Shown: piece after piece, positions 6,560 through 29,416 of the stretch
Layout: every line of letters begins with the position of its first letter
How positions within the stretch are numbered: position 1 is the stretch's first letter
DNA from: a virus
Taxonomy: Duplodnaviria > Heunggongvirae > Uroviricota > Caudoviricetes
Length of the DNA: 34,296 nt
Strand: one strand, 5' to 3'
IMG/VR virus record: IMGVR_UViG_2913128013_000001
Span: 1 to 34,296 of that record
Made by a program: the position numbers and the translations under genes
The notes under the pieces: model-generated
The model's input: only the letters and a program-made list of their open reading frames with translations
Told to the model about the DNA's origin: nothing
Database searches by the model: none

Positions 6560-6788
6560 AGAACGCCGCCAGTCGTGAAACTTGTTTTCAGGGCTGGCGG
6601 GGTTGAACAACGAGCGAAGCGAGGCGTTAGTTGACAGTCATATTTTTACTGCGTTGGTGCTGGTTTTTGACGGTTGAAAGGAGTTAGCTCGGAGAGCTAA
6701 AGCTAACAACTTACAAATATTCAAAAGTAAGCTTCCTGTTGTTAACATAAGGTCGATTTTTTATGTGGATGATGCAAAAAGGATAGCT

Positions 6789-7520
6789 ATGGATACTGTA
6801 ATCGCTTTTCTATCACTCGCTTTTTTCGTTGCTTTTTTCATCGGGTTAATCAAACCATCACTGGTGCGGATGCCGAACCGTAAACGTGCAAGTGCGGTTT
6901 ATCTCGGAGGAGGTTTTGTATTGAGCATAATTGGTTCAATACTCTATCCAACAGAAAAAAGCCAGCCAGTTGCTAAAACTGATACATCAACCGTTGCAGA
7001 ACACCAAGTCCAAAAAACATTCGAATATGGTGGAAAAACACTCAAGGAATATCGGAACGAGCCAAAGAAAACTCGACACGATATTGTGAATAGTTACATT
7101 GATTTTAAGAAAGTGCCAGTCACCGCATCAGATGCATTTTATGCCTGCATGAGTGAATATACTTTTACCAAAGATGATGAGTTGAAACTCGGTGATGTTC
7201 TTGGGTGGTGCTTTAATGATTATGAAAATGACCCGAATTCACTAAACAATAAAATCAATCTTGATACATTTCAGAGTAATTTTAGTGGTTGGGATGGTTC
7301 TTATCGTCCATTGGAAAAACTAATTAAAGATAATATGAACGATGATTCATCTTATAAACATGTGTCAACGGTATATCATTTGGTTTTGAATAAAGACCCG
7401 CACGCCATTGTGAAAACCACATTTCGTGGCACTAATGCTTATGGAGGAGTAGTTAAACAGACTATTGCTGCGCGTGTCGACATCCGAACGGGCGAAGTCG
7501 TTTCAGTATTAGATAACTAA
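6789..7520 (+). CDS. Membrane-anchored hypothetical protein, 243 aa (cargo island A, gene 1)
   Basis: ATG at 6789 with AAGGA 6 nt upstream. Two predicted N-terminal transmembrane helices (VIAFLSLAFFVAFFIGLI and VYLGGGFVLSIIGSILYP) followed by a soluble domain of roughly 180 aa. Strongly AT-rich compared with flanking phage genes. Confidence 0.55.
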   Translation: MDTVIAFLSLAFFVAFFIGLIKPSLVRMPNRKRASAVYLGGGFVLSIIGSILYPTEKSQPVAKTDTSTVAEHQVQKTFEYGGKTLKEYRNEPKKTRHDIVNSYIDFKKVPVTASDAFYACMSEYTFTKDDELKLGDVLGWCFNDYENDPNSLNNKINLDTFQSNFSGWDGSYRPLEKLIKDNMNDDSSYKHVSTVYHLVLNKDPHAIVKTTFRGTNAYGGVVKQTIAARVDIRTGEVVSVLDN

Positions 7521-7523
7521 TCG

Positions 7524-7585
7524 TTGATGCCGTATTGACACTTGTTATACTAGTGGTGGAACGAGACTGCAATAGTCTGTTCCAC
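7524..7585 (+). promoter_or_regulatory. Sigma70-like promoter (TTGATG-16nt-TATACT) followed immediately by an imperfect 12-bp-arm inverted repeat (candidate operator or 5' stem-loop)
   Basis: TTGATG at 7524-7529 and TATACT at 7546-7551. Dyad GTGGAAC-g-AGACT (7556-7568) pairs with AGTCT-G-TTCCAC (7574-7585) with one bulge and a 5-nt loop. Confidence 0.35.
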
Positions 7586-7632
7586 TACAGGAGTAATTAC
7601 CTTGACTGTAAGTTGCTTTTATTGAGGGAACT

Positions 7633-8922
7633 ATGAAGTTTAAGACTGAATTGAGTCGAAAATTGCATGACTCGGTAGTGTTTGATTTGAAAAAAGACCT
7701 GGTAAAATTAGAGGGAAACCTAAAAAATACAGATTTGTTGTTGTCGTTTCAGTTCAAAATAATAAGGAATATAATTAGAAGTGAAAGGATGATCAAAGGA
7801 TTAAAGTCTTTCTTAGGGGAACTAAAGGCAACAAAAAGAAAAGGTGGTTTAAAAAAAGAACAATCTAAACTTATTAAGGAAAATATTAAGAGTGTTGAGC
7901 AGGTTATTGATGATGTGAAATTTAAAATATATATCTTCAAAATGTTTGGTGATAGTGTTGCTTTTTTGTATTTGGATAAGTTTGATATTAAGCATTTTTT
8001 TTATAATGTTGTGGATTACAGTCCCAAGGAGTCAGCGGGCTATATGGGAGGGAAGGATGGCTTAAAAGAAGAATGGGGATTGGTGAAGAAGGCCTGCAAG
8101 GCTGGTGTTCCTACGTTACTCAATGATATTACAATGAGTATGAGGCATGGTGATGTTTGTTTACTTGGTGAAGGTGCACCAGTACTGGTGGAGGTGAAAT
8201 CAAGTCAAAATAAAAATGATCGTGTTGAACGTCAAAAAAATAACCTTAATAGACTAGCTGAATTTTTAGCAGAAGATAAAGCTGAAGATTTTAGAGGGAT
8301 GCCATTAGTGTTAAGGAAAGAACTGTGTTTTTCAGAAGTTACATATAAAAAAGAATTTAATGAGCATCTGAATGTATGCAGGAAAAAAGGAATTTCATGG
8401 GTAAGGCTAGAAGATGGATTTTATGTGGTATCTAATCGTGGCTGTGATCTGGAAATAGCATTATCACAGTTGGATCTTAGAGGGAGGAAAATTGCACCTA
8501 TATTTTTGAATGAATATAAAAATAATCAATTGTGGGTTCCTTTAACTCCATTTGTTAATCTTATAAATGATGCGCGTGATTTGTGTGACTTTATAAATGG
8601 GGAGTTAACTATTCTCTGTGTTCTTGATTTGGATTGTTTTAAACAAATAGCTTTGAATGAAGGGTTTGAGCTTGTTTTTGTCGATGGTGAAGACTATTCG
8701 ATGATATTTAAAGAATTTGGTAGCTCATTGATTTGGGGTGTGTCATGGCAAATGATGCTTCGCACTCCTTTAGAAATGGTGTCAATGTCTTGGTTAATTA
8801 AAGATTCAATTGATAGATTTAAGCGTTTACAAAAGCAACATGCTGAGATGCAGCCTGCCACTGATGTTAATACATCCGAAACCTCCTTGTTTGAAAAATA
8901 TAGGCCTCTTTTTACAAAGTAG
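7633..8922 (+). CDS. Hypothetical protein with PD-(D/E)xK-like nuclease motif, 429 aa (cargo island A, gene 2)
   Basis: ATG at 7633 with GAGGGAA RBS. Very AT-rich and Lys-rich. Central motif E147...D165...D174(HGDVCLLG)...E187-V-K189(PVLVEVKSS) fits the restriction-endonuclease-like fold pattern. No Walker A motif seen. Confidence 0.6.
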   Translation: MKFKTELSRKLHDSVVFDLKKDLVKLEGNLKNTDLLLSFQFKIIRNIIRSERMIKGLKSFLGELKATKRKGGLKKEQSKLIKENIKSVEQVIDDVKFKIYIFKMFGDSVAFLYLDKFDIKHFFYNVVDYSPKESAGYMGGKDGLKEEWGLVKKACKAGVPTLLNDITMSMRHGDVCLLGEGAPVLVEVKSSQNKNDRVERQKNNLNRLAEFLAEDKAEDFRGMPLVLRKELCFSEVTYKKEFNEHLNVCRKKGISWVRLEDGFYVVSNRGCDLEIALSQLDLRGRKIAPIFLNEYKNNQLWVPLTPFVNLINDARDLCDFINGELTILCVLDLDCFKQIALNEGFELVFVDGEDYSMIFKEFGSSLIWGVSWQMMLRTPLEMVSMSWLIKDSIDRFKRLQKQHAEMQPATDVNTSETSLFEKYRPLFTK

Positions 8923-20919: not shown

Positions 20920-23538
20920 ATGAGCACGAAATTTAAAACCGTTATCACTACTGCCGGAGCCGCAAAGCTGGCAGCCGCCACTGTCCCCGGCGGGAAAAAA
21001 GTAACCCTGTCTGCAATGGCCGTGGGTGACGGTAATGGCAAATTGCCGGTGCCGGATGCCGGTCAGACGAAACTGGTGCATGAGGTCTGGCGTCACGCTC
21101 TGAATAAAGTCAGCGTGGATAACAAGAATAAAAACTATATCGTGGCTGAACTGGTTGTACCGCCCGAAGTGGGCGGCTTCTGGATGCGTGAGCTTGGTCT
21201 GTATGACGATGCCGGAACACTGATTGCGGTCGCTAACATGGCAGAAAGCTATAAGCCTGAACTGGCTGAAGGCTCCGGGCGTGCGCAGACCTGCCGCATG
21301 GTCATTATTGTCAGTAACGTGGCGTCTGTTGAGCTGAGTATTGATGCCAGCACAGTGATGGCGACGCAGGATTACGTCGATGACAAAATCGCAGAACATG
21401 AGCAGTCCCGCCGCCATCCTGACGCCACGCTGACAGAAAAAGGTTTTACTCAGTTAAGCAGTGCAACAAACAGCACCAGTGAGTCATTGGCGGCAACGCC
21501 AAAAGCGGTCAAGGCAGCAAATGACAACGCAAATTCACGTCTGGCGAAAAATCAGAATGGTGCAGATATCCAGGATAAATCAGCTTTTCTGGACAATGTT
21601 GGCGTTACCAGCCTGACGTTTATGAAAAACAATGGCGAAATGCCGGTTGATGCTGATCTGAATACGTTTGGTCCTGTTAAGGCTTATTCAGGTATCTGGT
21701 CTAAAGCAACATCCACCAACGCAACACTGGAGAAAAATTTCCCGGAAGATAATGCTGTCGGTGTGCTTGAGGTTTTTGCTGCCGGAAATTTTGCAGGTAC
21801 GCAACGCTTTACCACAAGAGACGGCAATGTATACATGCGTAAACTCGCCAATAAGTGGAATGGCACTGATGGTCCGTGGGGCGTATGGCGTCACACTCAA
21901 TCAGCGACCCGCCCTTTGAGTACGACTATAGACCTGAATACGCTTGGAGCCGCCGAGCATCTTGGTTTATGGCGTAACAGTAGCTCGGCTATAGCTTCAT
22001 ATGAACGCAATTATCCAGAGGAAGGCGGCTTTGCTCAGGGGACGCTTGAGATCCTCGAAGGCGGGAATTATGGAAGAACGCAACGTTATACCACTCGCCG
22101 TGGAAATATGTACGTCCGCTGCCTTGCGGCAAGCTGGGATGCATCAAATCCGCAGTGGGAACCGTGGTTAAGAGTCGGTCATCAGTCAGAGAGTCGTTAT
22201 TACGACGGGGATTTGAATGATGTGACTTCACCAGGTATTTACAGCGTTACAGGTAAAGCGACCAACGGTCCAATACTGGACGGAAACGGCGTGACAGTCC
22301 TCGGTATTCTGGAAGTGTTGAGGCGCTTTGATGGTGTTAACGTATGGCAGCGTTATACAACTGCCGGAACAGGTACAACCCTTAAAGGTCGCACGTTTGA
22401 GCGCGTTTTTACCGGCAGCTCGTGGAGCGAATGGCGGGAAGTCTACACCTCGTATTCACTTCCCGTGAATCTGGGTATCGGCGGTGTTACAGACAGGTTA
22501 TCCAGTCTGGACTGGCAGACCTACGACTTTATACCGGGCAGCATGATAACTGTCAGGCTTTCAGATATGACCAATATTCCCGATGGGATGGAATGGGGCG
22601 TCATTGATACTAACCTGATAAATATCACTGTTGGCCCCAGTGAAGGCGGAGGTGTCGCCCGTTCAATGCAGGTATGGCGCAGCACTTCAAACAAAACCAA
22701 CTATCGTTTTTTTACAGTCCGTTTATATGGCAATCCTGGGGAGCGTAGCTTCAATATTCGTCGGCTACCAATTATCGACGAAGCCCAGACATGGGAGGCA
22801 AAACAGACATTCAGCGGTGGCCTTTCAGGTGAGCTGTCCGGCAATGCTGCTACAGCAACAAAGCTGAAAACGGCAAGGACAATTAACGGCGTAAAATTTG
22901 ACGGCTCGGCAAATATTGAAGCGTTTCCGCCAGGTGTTCCGCTGCCGTGGCCATCAGATACACCACCTGCGGGCTATGCAATTATGCAGGGGCAGACGTT
23001 TGATAAGGCAGCATATCCGAAACTGGCTATAGCCTATCCTTCTGGTGTTATTCCAGATATGCGCGGCTGGACAATCAAGGGCAAACCCGCCAGTGGGCGT
23101 GCCGTATTGTCACAGGAACAGGACGGGATTAAATCGCATACTCACAGCGCCAGTGCGTCAAATACGGATTTAGGGACGAAAACGACCAGTTCATTTGATT
23201 ACGGCACGAAGACAGTCAGTACGTTTAACTACGGAACAAAAACCACTAATACCACAGGTAACCATACACATACCATTTACAGAGGGAATGCCAATACTAA
23301 TGGTGAAACCGGTAAAACAGGCTTTGACAACCCATCGTTTAATGGCACATCAGGAGCTGCCGGGAATCATGCCCACACGGTAGATATTGGCGCACATAAT
23401 CATACGGTTGGTATTGGTGCACATTCACACACGGTTGCTATTGGCTCACACGGGCACTCTATTACCGTTAATGCTACAGGTAATACAGAAAACACCGTCA
23501 AAAACATCGCATTTAACTATATTGTGAGGCTTGCATAA
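20920..23538 (+). CDS. H: Tail fibre protein H, 872 aa (extended, mosaic C-terminus)
   Basis: N-terminal region typical of P2-like fibre attachment. Central three tandem degenerate repeats of about 60 aa (21739-22450). C-terminal His-box repeats GNHxHT / GAHxHTV (about 23137-23470). Confidence 0.85.
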
Positions 23539-24116
23539 TGGCTTTCAGAATGAGTGCAGAAGCACAAACTATCCTCGTTTTCAATTTACTTGATGGAACC
23601 AATGAGTTTATTGGCGAAAGTGATGCATATATTCCGCCGCATACAGGTCTGCCTGCAAACAGTACAGATATTGCACCACCTGATATTCCTGCTGGTTATG
23701 CAGCCGTTTTCAATGCAGATGAAATGAAATGGGAACTGATGGAAGACCATCGCGGAAAGACCGTCTACGAAACGAAAACAGGAGCAGCCATTTATATTTC
23801 TGAACTTGGCGTATTACCTCCAGATGTGACAGCTATTTCCCCGGAGGGGGATTATCAGAAATGGAACGGAAATGCGTGGGTGAATGATGAGAATGCAGAG
23901 CGTGATGCACTTGTCAGAGCGGCGGAGTCTCAGAAGAAAGAGCAGATTGTATATGCCGGTGAAATTATTGGCATGCTGCAGGATGCTGTCGATTTAGATA
24001 TGGCTACCGAGGAAGAAAAGTTAAGCCTGACACACTGGAAAAAATACCGTGTGCTACTGAATCGCGTTCAGCCGGAAAATGCCCCGGATATAGAATGGCC
24101 AGAAATGCCGCAATAA
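23538..24116 (+). CDS. G: Tail fibre assembly chaperone G, 192 aa
   Basis: TAATG-coupled to H; size and position match a P2 gpG-type Tfa chaperone. Confidence 0.75.
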
Positions 24117-24435
24117 ATCGTATTAGCTCTGGTGTGAGATTACTCATCTATGGCACAGAGTAAAACCTAATCTGACTGTCCGCTCTGTGCCAAGGGCGGA
24201 CGTTAGAAATATAAAAGCATCTTTATAACCTGGTTGTTGGGGAGAGTTTTGTTGCGTTCGCCACCACTCCTGAGAATGCTGCTATTTACTATGGTAATAT
24301 TGACAGCTAAAATTTATAATGAAGAGCGACTCAATAGCCAGTTCAAGCCAGATTCTGATGGGGCATTAATGATATTCCTTCTCGCTATTTCGGTATGTTG
24401 CCCACTCTAGCATCTTTAGAATAAGGAACGAAACC

Positions 24436-24939
24436 GTGACAGAATTTCTTGAAAAAATGTTTGATCGTGTTTATTCGGAAAAAGACTTCAGCATTAATAT
24501 CGCCATATTTGTCTCCGGAATCGCAGGAGTTACCTGTTATCTTATTCTCCACGATTATGTACTGACGCTGTTTTCTTTTATTATTGTTTTTCCGGTTGTA
24601 AAGATTATTGCGGGAGGATTATACCTGCGAATTATTACCCTCAAGGGAGAGGCAGTTGCAGAAAAACGACTGGCAATGCTTTATAATTCTTTGACTGGAA
24701 GAGAAAAAGAAGTAGTAATGCACTTTGTGACGCATGGTGGTTCTGTTATGACATGGGGACAAATGAATAGGCTTGATGATCCTGAACCGGGTGTAGAATC
24801 TCTGGCCCGTCGTGGATTACTGAATACGTCCGTAACGATGGATGGTATGCGAGAAACGTTTGAACTAGATCTGACCCTCTTTAATTATGCATACAACTAT
24901 CACCCCCATCAGGAGAAGATGCTTACTTCAGAAGAATAA
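24436..24939 (+). CDS. Small membrane protein, 167 aa (cargo island B)
   Basis: GTG start at 24436 with AAGGA RBS (ATG alternative at 24460). Two predicted transmembrane helices in the first 60 aa, then a soluble C-terminal part. AT-rich. Confidence 0.45.
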   Translation: MTEFLEKMFDRVYSEKDFSINIAIFVSGIAGVTCYLILHDYVLTLFSFIIVFPVVKIIAGGLYLRIITLKGEAVAEKRLAMLYNSLTGREKEVVMHFVTHGGSVMTWGQMNRLDDPEPGVESLARRGLLNTSVTMDGMRETFELDLTLFNYAYNYHPHQEKMLTSEE

Positions 24940-25243
24940 GAAATTTGTAATCTTTATGATGAAAATCTTAAACAGTATGGCGCCTCCCATCCTGTTTATT
25001 CAAAGGATGTAAGGTTTACACATTCCTGAAAACTTCAGACTCAACCATGATGTATGAGCTGTAGTATGAAGTCTCTTTCCATCCAGTTAAGTAAATGTCT
25101 GCTCCTCGCTTAAAGCGGACTTTTAGCTTAGTTAGCTAGTCAGCTCAGTGCTAAAAGCTGTATAGTCTGTATTGATGAACTAAGGAGCAGATCAGGAGTA
25201 TTTTGGAGAGCGTTTTAGTTACTGTGAAATATAATAGATTGAA

Positions 25244-25272
25244 ACCATGAGGCTCTATTAGAACCTCATGGT
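25244..25272 (-). terminator. Candidate terminator hairpin downstream of the 675-aa gene
   Basis: 9-bp stem ACCATGAGG / CCTCATGGT with an 11-nt loop, 13 nt past the stop codon. The downstream tract on the minus strand is only moderately U-rich. Confidence 0.35.
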
Positions 25273-25284
25273 AAACTTAAATAC

Positions 25285-27312
25285 TTACTGAAGTAAAACA
25301 TTCATTCTTTCTCTCCGATAATCCACAAGTTGTTCAATATCGCTCTCAAGACTTTCTATCCCAAAAGCAACTGAATCACTAATTTGTAGAGTGTGTTTTT
25401 TGACAACAGTGCTTTCAAAAAACTCATTTAATTGAATTGGTTTTTCAAATTGTTTAATTAAGTCAGAGGCTTGAAGCGTATTATTTTCCCATAATTTATG
25501 CATGGGGTGATTTGTGGACGTTAACGTACCATATTCATTTCTTACTTTAATTCCACTTATATGACTATTGTGCAGTATTTTGCTAAGTGCCGAATAGTCA
25601 GTTACATACACCCCATAGTATTTCCCAGGAAGTGAGAATGGAAGGTTGTTGACAATTACTGGTATAATTTCAAAGTTATTAATATCAAGGCCAAATTTAT
25701 CGCTGAATACATCCTGGTGTTTTTTTAGACCATCAGCAAGTCTGATAACTTGATTAGCTGCGTCAATTAAAAACATTTTCTTCTTGAATGCTTTAGTTAC
25801 AGAACCACCGGATAAATTTGTATTTTTACATTCCAGAACAAATACTTTATCATCTAATACAATTATTGCATCATACTCATATTCTTCATTCTCTCTTTTG
25901 AACTTAAAATGCTGATGATTTATTTTTAAATCAGAGAGCATTTCGTGGATCTCTTTTTCAAAACCAAATCCTTTTTGGGAAAGATCTACTTTTAGTGATG
26001 AGAACTTTGATAATATAATGTTACTTATTCCAGGGCTGAAATAGCCAATACTACAGAATAGATAATCTCCAGATTTCATTTTTAAAAGAGGAGAATCATA
26101 AAGGTCACGGGATTCATTGTTAAAGCTAGCCAAATCAATAAATAGCTTTGATTTATTACCAGGTATACCAACTAATTGTAAATATGTGCTCAATTCCGAT
26201 GAAGTAAATACTTCTCTTTTTTCCGATATTTTGGATAGTCTTTCTAGCGCGGAGTAACACCTAACCCATTCACGCAGTGTTAAACCAAAAATTAACATGC
26301 TCTCATCAGTTAAACATAGAGTCTCGAGTAGTGCTACATATGCCGGAAACTCTGATGTCGTTATTGAATAACCGTTATTAATATCTGCAAGCCTAGTTAA
26401 ATTTTCATCTACTGTTTTATGGACATTATGTTTATACAACGCCTCCATGAAGTTCTGTGATAACTTTGAATACAGCCTTTCATTTGACATGTAATCCAAT
26501 CTTATGAATTGTTCTTTAGTTAGATTAAATTCATAGAATGTCTCAAGACCAGCGTTCTCTAATCCATTAGGTAAGTTTGTAGAGGTATATTCATTTAATT
26601 CATAATCAAATAGCAGGCATGTTTCTACAGAACGCTCTAAAGAAGACCACAGTATCGAATTGTAAAATATTACCCCAGCATCATTAATATCATCTTCCTT
26701 AACATCTACCATGTCAGGAATTACAATGAAACCCCCACTATTTAACTTATAATTAAAGCCAATCATCTTCAAACTAAGAGATAGATAATCGACTGTTTTG
26801 GATATTACAACATCAGGAGAGTATGATTCACCTTGTTTGTTTTTTAAGTATGCGGTAGAAATATCAAACAATTTTGGTTCCCGGTTAATGCTCTCTAGAT
26901 ATTTCTTTGTTTCGTTTTTTAAAAAATCTATCTCACCTTGCGCCCGTCTTATTATAGCCCAACACTGTATTTCCGGCGTTTTTTTGCTGATGGGTAAGCT
27001 TGATAAGTTAGATTTAATAACATCAAATATTTTTTCCGCACAAATACATAGTTTTTTAAGGTTATCTATTTTTTGTATTAAATCAGGGACACTTGTAGCT
27101 CCTTTTAAGTCGGTGAGGAATGAATTTCTTTTTTCCCGTAAATTCACATTGTGGGGTTGTATATTGATGTTTTTTTTAAACATCGCAAAAAGGAAACGAA
27201 GTATTTTATCATTATAATTCTGTTTTAACTGTATCACTATGTTCTTTGACTTGAATTTGCAATAGTCGATTTCTAACGTTTTATAGATATTTTCTGCATG
27301 TGATTGTGACAT
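25285..27312 (-). CDS. Large hypothetical protein with C-terminal PD-(D/E)xK nuclease-like motif, 675 aa (cargo island B)
   Basis: ATG at 27310-27312 with AAGG RBS. Very AT-rich, opposite strand to the phage late genes. Motif GFGFEKEIHE (E452/E454)...YDAIIVLDDKVFVLECK (D481, D487/D488, E494, K496). No Walker A motif. Confidence 0.6.
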   Translation of the reverse strand: MSQSHAENIYKTLEIDYCKFKSKNIVIQLKQNYNDKILRFLFAMFKKNINIQPHNVNLREKRNSFLTDLKGATSVPDLIQKIDNLKKLCICAEKIFDVIKSNLSSLPISKKTPEIQCWAIIRRAQGEIDFLKNETKKYLESINREPKLFDISTAYLKNKQGESYSPDVVISKTVDYLSLSLKMIGFNYKLNSGGFIVIPDMVDVKEDDINDAGVIFYNSILWSSLERSVETCLLFDYELNEYTSTNLPNGLENAGLETFYEFNLTKEQFIRLDYMSNERLYSKLSQNFMEALYKHNVHKTVDENLTRLADINNGYSITTSEFPAYVALLETLCLTDESMLIFGLTLREWVRCYSALERLSKISEKREVFTSSELSTYLQLVGIPGNKSKLFIDLASFNNESRDLYDSPLLKMKSGDYLFCSIGYFSPGISNIILSKFSSLKVDLSQKGFGFEKEIHEMLSDLKINHQHFKFKRENEEYEYDAIIVLDDKVFVLECKNTNLSGGSVTKAFKKKMFLIDAANQVIRLADGLKKHQDVFSDKFGLDINNFEIIPVIVNNLPFSLPGKYYGVYVTDYSALSKILHNSHISGIKVRNEYGTLTSTNHPMHKLWENNTLQASDLIKQFEKPIQLNEFFESTVVKKHTLQISDSVAFGIESLESDIEQLVDYRRERMNVLLQ

Positions 27313-27561
27313 AAAGAAACCTTACAGTGGTGGTAATATTTGACATGATGTCCATTGAGGTAGCATGCAGTTTATCCAATATCCTGAATACTCGCAAATT
27401 TAAAACAATATTAATGGAGAGTATAAATATCCTGCTTAACCGGACCATTCACTTTGAGAGATCTTCCGGCAAACCAATGTCCGCAGTTCGCTCAAAGTAG
27501 ACTGTCAGATTTGACAGAGCTTTGGTTACTTAATTTGTCAGTTGGAAACTGAGAGAGTACA

Positions 27562-27589
27562 AATCAAGGCCGGCGGGCTGATTGCCCGC
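27562..27589 (+). terminator. Rho-independent terminator upstream of the FI late operon
   Basis: GGCGGGC-tgatt-GCCCGCC hairpin followed by TTTTCTTTAT on the plus strand. Confidence 0.55.
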
Positions 27590-27694
27590 CTTTTCTTTAT
27601 CTGTTGTTTCATCCACTGACCAGTCAGGTCAAATAGCGTCTCATGCACTGCCCAACAGAAAATAGTTGCACCCATTAACCACGGAGTTAAACGG

Positions 27695-28885
27695 ATGAGT
27701 GACTATCATCACGGCGTGCAGGTGCTGGAGATTAACGACGGCACCCGCGTCATTTCCACCGTATCCACTGCCATTGTCGGCATGGTCTGCACGGCCAGCG
27801 ATGCGGATGCGGAAACCTTCCCCCTCAATAAACCGGTGCTGATTACCAATGTGCAGAGCGCAATTGCAAAGGCTGGTAAAAAAGGCACGCTGGCGGCGTC
27901 GTTGCAGGCCATCGCTGACCAGTCAAAACCAGTCACCGTTGTCGTGCGTGTTGAAGACGGCACCGGCGACGACGAGGAAACGAAACTCGCGCAGACCGTT
28001 TCCAATATCATCGGCACCACTGACGAAAACGGTCAGTACACCGGACTGAAAGCCCTGATGGGGGCTGAGTCGGTTACCGGCGTTAAACCGCGCATTCTTG
28101 GTGTGCCGGGGCTGGACACCAAAGAGGTTGCCGTCGCACTGGCATCGGTATGCCAGGAACTGAATGCATTCGGGTATATCAGCGCATGGGGCTGTAAAAC
28201 CATTTCCGAGGTGAAAGCCTACCGCCAGAATTTCAGCCAGCGTGAGCTGATGGTCATCTGGCCGGATTTCCTCGCATGGGATACGGTCACCAGCACCACC
28301 GCCACCGCGTATGCCACCGCCCGTGCGCTGGGTCTGCGCGCTAAAATCGACCAGGAGCAGGGCTGGCATAAAACGCTGTCCAACGTCGGGGTAAACGGTG
28401 TTACCGGCATCAGCGCATCTGTATTCTGGGATTTGCAGAAGTCCGGCACTGATGCTGACCTGCTGAACGAGGCAGGCGTCACAACGCTGGTTCGCCGCGA
28501 CGGTTTCCGTTTCTGGGGTAACCGTACCTGCTCCGATGACCCACTGTTCCTCTTTGAAAGCTACACACGCACCGCGCAGGTACTGGCTGACACGATGGCT
28601 GAGGCGCACATGTGGGCTATTGATAAGCCCATCACCGCAACGCTGATTCGCGACATCGTTGACGGCATCAATGCCAAATTCCGTGAACTGAAAAGCAACG
28701 GTTATATCGTGGATGGCACATGCTGGTTCAGTGAAGAAGCCAATGATGCGGAAACCCTCAAGGCCGGAAAACTGTATATCGACTACGACTACACCCCGGT
28801 GCCTCCTCTCGAAAACCTGACCCTGCGCCAGCGTATTACTTCAAGATACCTGGCAAGTCTGGTCACCTCGGTTAACAGCAATTAA
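27695..28885 (+). CDS. FI: Contractile tail sheath protein, 396 aa
   Basis: 396 aa, the same size as P2 gpFI; GGAG RBS; first gene of the FI-FII-E-T-U-D operon. Confidence 0.9.
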   Translation: MSDYHHGVQVLEINDGTRVISTVSTAIVGMVCTASDADAETFPLNKPVLITNVQSAIAKAGKKGTLAASLQAIADQSKPVTVVVRVEDGTGDDEETKLAQTVSNIIGTTDENGQYTGLKALMGAESVTGVKPRILGVPGLDTKEVAVALASVCQELNAFGYISAWGCKTISEVKAYRQNFSQRELMVIWPDFLAWDTVTSTTATAYATARALGLRAKIDQEQGWHKTLSNVGVNGVTGISASVFWDLQKSGTDADLLNEAGVTTLVRRDGFRFWGNRTCSDDPLFLFESYTRTAQVLADTMAEAHMWAIDKPITATLIRDIVDGINAKFRELKSNGYIVDGTCWFSEEANDAETLKAGKLYIDYDYTPVPPLENLTLRQRITSRYLASLVTSVNSN

Positions 28886-28897
28886 GGAGCCTGACCG

Positions 28898-29416
28898 ATG
28901 GCAATGCCGCGCAAACTCAAGTTAATGAACGTCTTTCTGAACGGCTACAGCTATCAGGGCGTTGCAAAGTCCGTCACGCTGCCAAAACTGACCCGTAAGC
29001 TCGAAAACTATCGCGGTGCGGGGATGAACGGCAGCGCACCGGTAGACCTCGGCCTTGATGACGATGCGCTGTCAATGGAGTGGTCGCTCGGTGGCTTCCC
29101 GGATTCGGTTATCTGGGAGCTTTACGCCGCAACCGGTGTGGATGCCGTGCCGATTCGTTTTGCAGGCTCTTACCAGCGCGACGATACCGGCGAAACGGTG
29201 GCCGTCGAAGTGGTCATGCGTGGACGTCAGAAAGAAATCGACACCGGCGAGGGTAAACAGGGAGAAGACACCGAGTCGAAAATCTCCGTGGTCTGCACCT
29301 ATTTCCGGCTGACGATGGACGGTAAGGAGCTGGTCGAAATCGACACCATCAACATGATTGAGAAGGTGAACGGCGTCGACCGGCTGGAGCAACACCGCCG
29401 CAATATCGGCCTGTGA
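28898..29416 (+). CDS. FII: Tail tube protein, 172 aa
   Basis: 172 aa, same size and position as P2 gpFII. Confidence 0.9.
   Translation: MAMPRKLKLMNVFLNGYSYQGVAKSVTLPKLTRKLENYRGAGMNGSAPVDLGLDDDALSMEWSLGGFPDSVIWELYAATGVDAVPIRFAGSYQRDDTGETVAVEVVMRGRQKEIDTGEGKQGEDTESKISVVCTYFRLTMDGKELVEIDTINMIEKVNGVDRLEQHRRNIGL

Follow-up and report, generated by a model that had tools for sequence, protein, structure and literature searches.

The low-GC interval between tail genes G and FI

The window, by which we mean the whole analysed stretch of 34,296 nucleotides, is a P2-like prophage, and the gene studied here lies in an AT-rich interval (24117-27694) with a GC content of 32–41%, compared with 53–60% on either side. 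This interval separates the tail-fibre assembly gene G from the tail sheath gene FI, and a prophage of E. coli EC-JS426 is 98.5% identical over it and carries the same annotation. The genes and sites located there, together with the flanking tail genes, are the following:

20920-23538, tail-fibre gene H
23538-24116, tail-fibre assembly gene G
24178-25020, + strand, mobile single-gene cassette, about 92–93% identical in DNA in non-P2 contexts
24285-24313, + strand, candidate sigma-70 promoter-like site (TTTACT, 17 nt spacer, TAAAAT), scoring 9/12 in a consensus scan
24423-24427, + strand, Shine-Dalgarno-like AAGGA, read in the sequence, 8 nt before the GTG start
24436-24939, + strand, 167-aa ORF for a probable SieB-like, membrane-anchored winged-helix protein (from the ORF list, RefSeq, homologues and dN/dS)
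24969-24998, + strand, terminator-like hairpin, 30 nt after the stop codon and followed by a weak U-run
25285-27312, - strand, 675-aa nuclease-like NERD-domain protein (Pfam PF08378, E = 8.7e-5, residues 448-532)
27695-28885, tail sheath gene FI
28898-29416, tail tube gene FII

As an initial, sequence-only reading had described it, the ORF is found exactly at 24436-24939 on the + strand, is 167 aa long and AT-rich, is the gene next to G, and is convergent with the 675-aa gene. Its GC content is 40.1%, against 53–60% in the flanking tail genes and about 55% in the phage backbone, and its start codon is GTG. The same CDS is called by RefSeq in an E. coli prophage (L001, 4317-4820; L numbers designate sampled loci) where the ORF is 100% identical, and RefSeq calls also cover the copies in L002 and L003; the protein is annotated merely as "hypothetical". 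A word-indexed search recovered 30 homologues of the protein, and an exhaustive profile search recovered 161 cluster representatives (50% identity), of which 110 had E <= 1e-10. Comparison with homologues 96%, 94%, 84%, and 67% identical in protein yielded dN/dS values of 0.19, 0.23, 0.28, and 0.18, respectively, so the frame is under purifying selection, and the ORF is a real gene and not a product of chance.

The ORF is carried within a cassette of about 0.85 kb, which starts about 255 bp ahead of it and runs on for about 80 bp past it. Megablast matches covered positions 62-904 of the query (24178-25020 in the window) or 5-904, and in a DNA alignment of five contexts homology begins near CTCTGTGCCAAG and ends at GGTTTACA. 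For the closer alleles (84–96% identical), this homology stops between the two convergent genes. Both AAGGA and the terminator-like hairpin were conserved in five of the five aligned contexts; the hairpin folds with -10.4 kcal/mol (z = -4.6, with none of 200 shuffles as stable), and its copy in L002 folds alike. L002, L003, and L028 retain the promoter-like region, and L032 retains part of it; nevertheless, promoter-like sites around 24285-24313 were not in excess of those in shuffled sequences, and the site is a candidate only. A 58-aa ORF with a TTG start in the upstream region of the cassette (24234-24410, +) was rejected as a gene, with an in-frame TAG present in L002 and L003.

About 90 bp following G are common to P2, including an inverted repeat (24152-24160 / 24183-24191), and part of this P2-type stretch accompanies the cassette into the integrative element of L002, as a remnant upstream of it. 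This remnant suggests that the cassette spread from a P2-like context. The repeat, of 9 bp with a 22-nt loop, lies just past the stop codon of G (-19.9 kcal/mol, z = -3.1 by RNA folding), its right arm being the left edge of the mobile cassette, and it may mark a junction formed by recombination or the point where the late tail-fibre (H-G) transcript stops.

In phage P2, the G-FI locus is classically occupied by Fun(Z), which blocks T5. Our ORF resembles it in sitting at the same variable locus as non-essential lysogenic-conversion cargo; however, P2 fun(Z) encodes 528 aa on the minus strand and ends just before the FI promoter, whereas the ORF encodes 167 aa on the opposite, + strand. Kinship between the two proteins was considered and rejected (best BLASTP hit 21.6 bits over 39 residues), as was kinship between the 675-aa protein and Fun(Z), for which no sequence relationship was found. 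The assignment of the ORF to the "Z/fun position" therefore holds for the G-FI variable locus but not in the strict sense, as the slot and the orientation belong to the 675-aa gene; the latter is the positional equivalent of Z/fun, and the 167-aa ORF is an additional cassette.

Elsewhere in the window, a second AT-rich island (6765-8922, +, GC 31–38%) encodes two proteins, one of 251 aa whose N-terminus carries a hydrophobic helix and one of 429 aa. It sits just before a conserved minus-strand phage gene (9247-10281) and has the look of the other hotspot for variable cargo in P2-like phages.

Predicted architecture and probable relationship to SieB

Hydropathy analysis (Kyte-Doolittle windows) revealed two hydrophobic stretches, one spanning about residues 20-38 and the other about 42-64. 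An AlphaFold model of the 167-aa protein, built from a 22-sequence alignment (mean pLDDT 76.7), placed helices at residues 2-12 (N-terminal), 15-38 (TM1), 41-84 (TM2 and juxtamembrane region), and 146-165 (terminal). The initial proposal of two transmembrane helices within the first 60 residues was thus essentially right by both approaches. The segments predicted along the ORF are:

24436-24492, + strand, N-terminal cytoplasmic segment, residues 1-19, with the most conserved motif of the family (K7, Y13, E15, D17, F18; RVYSEKDF)
24493-24549, + strand, TM helix 1, residues about 20-38 (hydropathy peaks and model helix 15-38)
24559-24627, + strand, TM helix 2, residues about 42-64, with conserved F52-P53 (hydropathy and model helix 41-84)
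24688-24870, + strand, cytoplasmic winged-helix domain, residues about 85-145

A turn of just three residues, H-D-Y, joins the two hydrophobic helices, and in the model TM2 runs on as a basic juxtamembrane helix up to residue 84. The model then shows the elements of a winged helix (a1, 88-100; b1, 104-106; a2, 107-110; a3, 117-125; wing, 129-133 and 139-144), with the 10-residue blocks of residues 81-150 averaging pLDDT values of 82–92. The linker after TM2 is basic, with a mean charge of +2.5 among 68 diverse relatives, and by the positive-inside rule both termini are predicted to be cytoplasmic. On the contrary, the winged-helix domain is acidic in 65 of these 68 relatives (mean net charge of -4.3), and the C-terminal part of the query, comprising the winged helix and the terminal helix, has a net charge of -4; this acidity would favour a protein rather than DNA as the ligand. 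What the sequence-only reading called a "charged soluble tail" is modelled as a folded winged helix (pLDDT about 90) followed by a terminal helix. The closest solved folds were the DNA-binding winged helices of MarR, ArsR, and TubR, and the family profile found no match below E = 0.058 among PDB sequences. Both the topology and the fold stand as predictions.

Conservation is strongest in the N-terminal segment, where K7, Y13, E15, D17, and F18 are invariant columns in the tighter family alignment (A1), with Y13 and E15 conserved in at least 90% of the sequences in the 68-sequence alignment (A2). The other most conserved positions are D40 in the turn, F52-P53 in TM2, E90 and K91 in a1, and G101, along with E121, S122, L123, and R126 in or next to a3.

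When used alone as the query against Pfam, the protein gave LcrR as the best match (E = 0.099), and PF14163 (Super-infection exclusion protein B) was not matched even at E <= 10. No usable match was found in NCBIfam, all the PHROGs matches had E > 0.2, and neither the 167-aa nor the 675-aa protein matched any model of PADLOC-DB v2 at E <= 1. Its relatives, in turn, pointed to SieB: PF14163 was matched by 14 of 22 relatives at E <= 10 and by 30 of the 68 at E < 0.01 (best, 3.6e-8), being the only Pfam family matched by more than two of the latter. One relative (P0022) scored 26.2 bits, for a gathering threshold of 26, in a match spanning TM2, the linker, and the winged helix, while the authentic SieB proteins of lambda and P22 score 101–103 bits against the same model.

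A direct comparison of profiles was carried out with an alignment (A3) of homologues gathered for the SieB protein taken from the lambda record. Alignment of A2 against A3 with hhalign gave a probability of 76.8%, with 134 columns aligned between the N-terminal motif and the wing and RVYSEKDF paired to RVFSNEPL of lambda SieB; a second run gave 79.9%, the E-values being 1.4–2.1e-5. The profile-profile probability against SieB thus stays below 80%. The score of 37.1 in the second run compares with a maximum of 16.1 among 30 column-shuffled SieB alignments and with 15.8 for the reversed alignment, so membrane-protein composition does not explain the match. Against P22 SieB alone, hhalign gave 62.7% (E = 7.2e-5) over the winged helix. 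A fold search among viral proteins (BFVD) gave weak matches throughout (all E > 1e-3), with a 195-aa P22 protein annotated as "initial portion of N operon" (Q38660), which we take to be P22 SieB, in rank 4 (E = 0.022). The model of lambda SieB shows the same order of elements as that of the query, and the C-terminal domains of both match many common winged-helix chains of the PDB. Altogether, the protein is probably a remote homologue of SieB, from a branch on the border of the Pfam family or slightly beyond it, with support from sequence comparison that is moderate and not decisive. In the literature, no SieB-like proteins outside lambda and P22 were found, and the papers on the P2 hotspots make no mention of SieB.

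SieB is a prophage-expressed exclusion protein of lambda and P22 that cuts short the lytic growth of superinfecting heterologous phages, and its exclusion was described genetically decades ago. The protein studied here is of the same size class (167 aa, compared with 179–192 aa) and is predicted to share its order of elements: a short N-terminal cytoplasmic helix, TM1, TM2 continuing into a long basic helix, a winged helix, and a C-terminal helix. They also share profile-level similarity from the R-V-[YF]-S motif through the wing, and both are single non-essential cargo genes of temperate phages. However, the periplasmic turn is of three residues in the model of the query, while lambda SieB is modelled with a loop of about 16 residues that includes a helix. 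Further differences are that lambdoid sieB belongs to the early-left region, with N (gene 24) on one side and ral on the other, and our ORF lies between G and FI; that the family of the query, unlike SieB, is also found on a plasmid, an integrative element, and chromosomes of distant phyla; and that the query, unlike authentic lambda and P22 SieB, falls below the reach of the Pfam model.

When P22-like phages superinfect, P22 SieB halts macromolecular synthesis in the cell midway through their lytic cycle, but it spares P22 itself (PMC10883804). P22 escapes through Esc, a second product of sieB that inhibits SieB, and through the sas antisense RNA, which shifts translation towards Esc (PMC10002423, PMC12197685). 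The annotation of the P22 record presents esc as sieB lacking the initial 24 codons, with Met25, at the beginning of TM1, as its start. If so, the loss of only the N-terminal cytoplasmic segment converts the SieB killer into an inhibitor, which would fit the strong N-terminal conservation in the family of the query. Alignment A1 shows no Met at the start of TM1, and thus no conserved internal start of the esc type, and Met8 of the query is Leu, Val, or Trp in most relatives. Likewise, an Rfam scan of 24000-27750 detected no RNA family and no evidence of a sas-like RNA; its sole match, to IS009, was below threshold (24.3 bits for a gathering value of 117, E = 0.0077; 24000-24079, +), falls inside the 3' end of gene G, and is almost certainly due to chance. 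The internal esc start and sas are P22-specific and do not define the whole SieB family.

Genomic contexts of the cassette and its neighbours

The ORF was found in 68 of 5426 complete E. coli genomes, with three identical copies, 24 of about 97% DNA identity, and 41 of about 73%. Beyond the P2-like prophage, copies or homologues were located in the following contexts:

L002, integrative element by tRNA-Ser and mtfA
L003 and L008, end of an e14-like prophage
L005 and L006, phage Ayreon and lambdoid prophages, where side tail fibre genes precede the ORF (and in L006 a tail-fibre assembly gene as well)
L007, IncI1 plasmid, between trbC and nikB
L027-L032, IMG/VR viral contigs

Among the lambdoid carriers, the gene follows stf/tfa, near the end of the prophage. 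On plasmids it is rare, with 2 of 72,556 PLSDB records, one example being p7_33_46A-2 (NZ_CP074821.1; L007, 4988-5479), an IncI1 conjugative plasmid where a lone 163-aa homologue of 76% DNA identity is flanked by trbC and the relaxase gene nikB.

Searching genome contigs with alignment A1 returned only a branch of 40–45% identity, with homologues in Zetaproteobacteria, Desulfobulbaceae, Campylobacterota, Bacteroidota, Omnitrophota, and others (L009-L026). Most of their neighbours were housekeeping genes (RNase PH, adenylate kinase, tRNA synthetase, DNA ligase, and sugar-nucleotide enzymes), and no defence-island signal was detected in this branch, just two integrases and scattered single PADLOC matches. 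The gene has a lower GC content than its flanks in 14 of 17 distant loci, by 7.4 points on average and up to 21, which fits isolated, horizontally acquired insertions and is silent on function. The spread of the family is oddly wide and patchy for a gene otherwise found in enterobacterial prophages.

With respect to the neighbours, the sequence-only reading had proposed that the ORF might be either an independent module or a membrane partner or antitoxin-like component of the 675-aa gene. The NERD gene is present in 3 of the 5426 E. coli genomes, all three also carrying the ORF; however, these three share one prophage segment, 98.5% identical over 3.6 kb, so the three co-occurrences amount to a single event, and the other 65 of the 68 carriers lack the NERD gene. 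Co-occurrence across prophages, which had been suggested as a check, is therefore confined to one lineage. Moreover, homologues of the NERD protein at 90% (Klebsiella), 84% (Kosakonia), and 38% (Enterobacter) identity showed no SieB-like neighbour in six loci, those of Klebsiella adjoining resolvase, umuDC, YaaC, and SRAP genes and those of Enterobacter sitting among housekeeping genes. These homologues travel alone in varied contexts, and the 675-aa NERD protein is itself a candidate single-gene defence protein.

Clustering of the neighbours at 31 loci revealed no conserved partner, the recurrent ones being limited to the upstream tail-fibre assembly gene (in phages), a 305-aa protein, and a 120-aa protein. 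The 305-aa zinc-ribbon protein, encoded convergently, accompanies the 96% allele in five sampled loci of at least three contexts, and the convergent 120-aa protein goes with the lambdoid allele. In the window, the NERD gene takes the place of the 305-aa gene, the junction lying at about 25020. The 305-aa protein (L002, 6096-7013, -; also in L003, L008, L027, and L028) bears C-terminal CxxC pairs and corresponds to phrog_20824. A relationship between it and the NERD protein was considered and rejected, the three downstream proteins being mutually unrelated. The 17 distant homologues have no neighbour family in common. In 65 of the 68 E. coli carriers, and across five further types of context, the cassette is found without the 675-aa gene; it is thus mobile and independent of the neighbouring gene, in agreement with the first of the two proposals.

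Possible function and alternative explanations

The reading that we favour, with moderate confidence, is that the cassette encodes a stand-alone, prophage-expressed abortive-exclusion protein of the SieB type, an accessory "moron" gene. The suggestion of a superinfection-exclusion or abortive-infection factor had been made from the sequence alone, and it is now backed by the remote homology and the architecture shared with lambda and P22 SieB; homology and architecture are reasonably supported, and from them we infer function and mechanism. Under this proposal, the gene would be transcribed from its own promoter in the lysogen, and the protein would stay idle in the inner membrane with both ends in the cytoplasm. 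The cytoplasmic winged helix would then recognise a protein of the incoming phage, a protein being preferred over DNA because of the acidity of the domain, and the N-terminal segment and the membrane hairpin would subsequently shut the cell down. This scheme presumes that the lysogen expresses the gene, that the protein acts against phages, that it does so by aborting infection, and that a phage protein is what triggers it. The reading has against it that the query alone matches no family model, that the profile-profile probability is below 80%, that no internal start of the esc type is conserved, and that the location is non-canonical, together with the housekeeping neighbours of the distant branch and the unenriched promoter match. 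A further comparison can be made with RexB of lambda, a four-TM inner-membrane abortive-infection effector that needs a separate sensor, RexA. Both are prophage-encoded inner-membrane proteins thought to shut the infected cell down; in contrast to RexB, the protein described here has its own cytoplasmic domain and no conserved partner, and the PADLOC search detected no sequence relationship to RexB-type effectors.

The main rival is a non-defence role as a membrane-tethered winged-helix regulator or DNA tether, acting in the control of prophage or host genes or in lysogenic conversion. We regard it as unlikely, although it draws on the likeness to the DNA-binding folds of MarR, ArsR, and TubR and on distant homologues placed amid housekeeping genes and not in defence islands. 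A net negative winged helix, as in nearly all the relatives, would be unusual for one that binds DNA, no conserved neighbouring operon appears as a target, SieB is the only sequence-family signal, and the combination of unrelated mobile carriers with a GC content below that of the flanks fits a selfish accessory gene. The small size, the two TM helices, and the very short turn between them would also suit a class II holin-like or lysis-timing membrane protein. However, the gene is located between the tail-fibre assembly gene and the tail-sheath gene and belongs to no lysis cassette, it is also present on a plasmid and at non-phage chromosomal sites, and two thirds of the protein form a conserved, folded cytoplasmic domain, all of which make such a role highly improbable.

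Two other explanations link the protein to the gene downstream. That it serves as membrane partner, antitoxin, or effector of the NERD protein in one two-gene system is suggested by their adjacency and shared AT-richness in the window and in three E. coli genomes, where every NERD copy adjoins the ORF. Yet these copies derive from a single prophage event, most carriers of the ORF lack the NERD gene, the homology of the cassette stops at 25020, between both genes, the NERD homologues of other genera have no SieB-like neighbour, and convergent genes are separately transcribed, so this possibility is close to refuted. A broader version holds that a generic membrane effector or anchor is coupled to a swappable convergent gene (NERD, 305-aa, or 120-aa), and it takes into account that all the enterobacterial chromosomal contexts sampled have a convergent, uncharacterised gene as the next one, and that the 305-aa gene follows the 96% allele through its five loci. 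Nevertheless, the three downstream proteins are unrelated, the copy on the IncI1 plasmid is followed by nikB, the distant homologues share no neighbour family, and convergent, separately terminated genes are typical of adjacent independent morons. We consider this coupling improbable, and hold equally slim the prospect that the G-FI locus is a modular defence of "membrane anchor plus exchangeable effector or sensor" and not a pair of independent morons.

SieB exclusion is itself already known; what is new is a divergent member that escapes Pfam, NCBIfam, PADLOC, and PHROGs. In practical terms this brings a modest gain: improved annotation for a prophage gene that recurs, and a clean candidate to test. 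Beyond this, our results suggest that SieB-type proteins are membrane-anchored winged-helix proteins, and that a divergent SieB branch, with kin in distant phyla, travels as a 0.85-kb single-gene cassette shared by prophages of the P2-like and lambdoid types, plasmids, and an integrative element. If the cassette does exclude phages, a very compact single-gene defence would join the G-FI hotspot of P2, and the N-terminal motif and the acidic winged helix could become dissectable with the Esc truncation of P22 as a guide. A less radical alternative to the modular defence, still improbable, is that the family forms a phylum-spanning branch of two-TM winged-helix abortive-infection proteins, in which the conserved N-terminal YxExDF would be the killing element and the acidic winged helix the sensor of a phage protein, a reading that, if true, would provide the first mechanistic handle on SieB.
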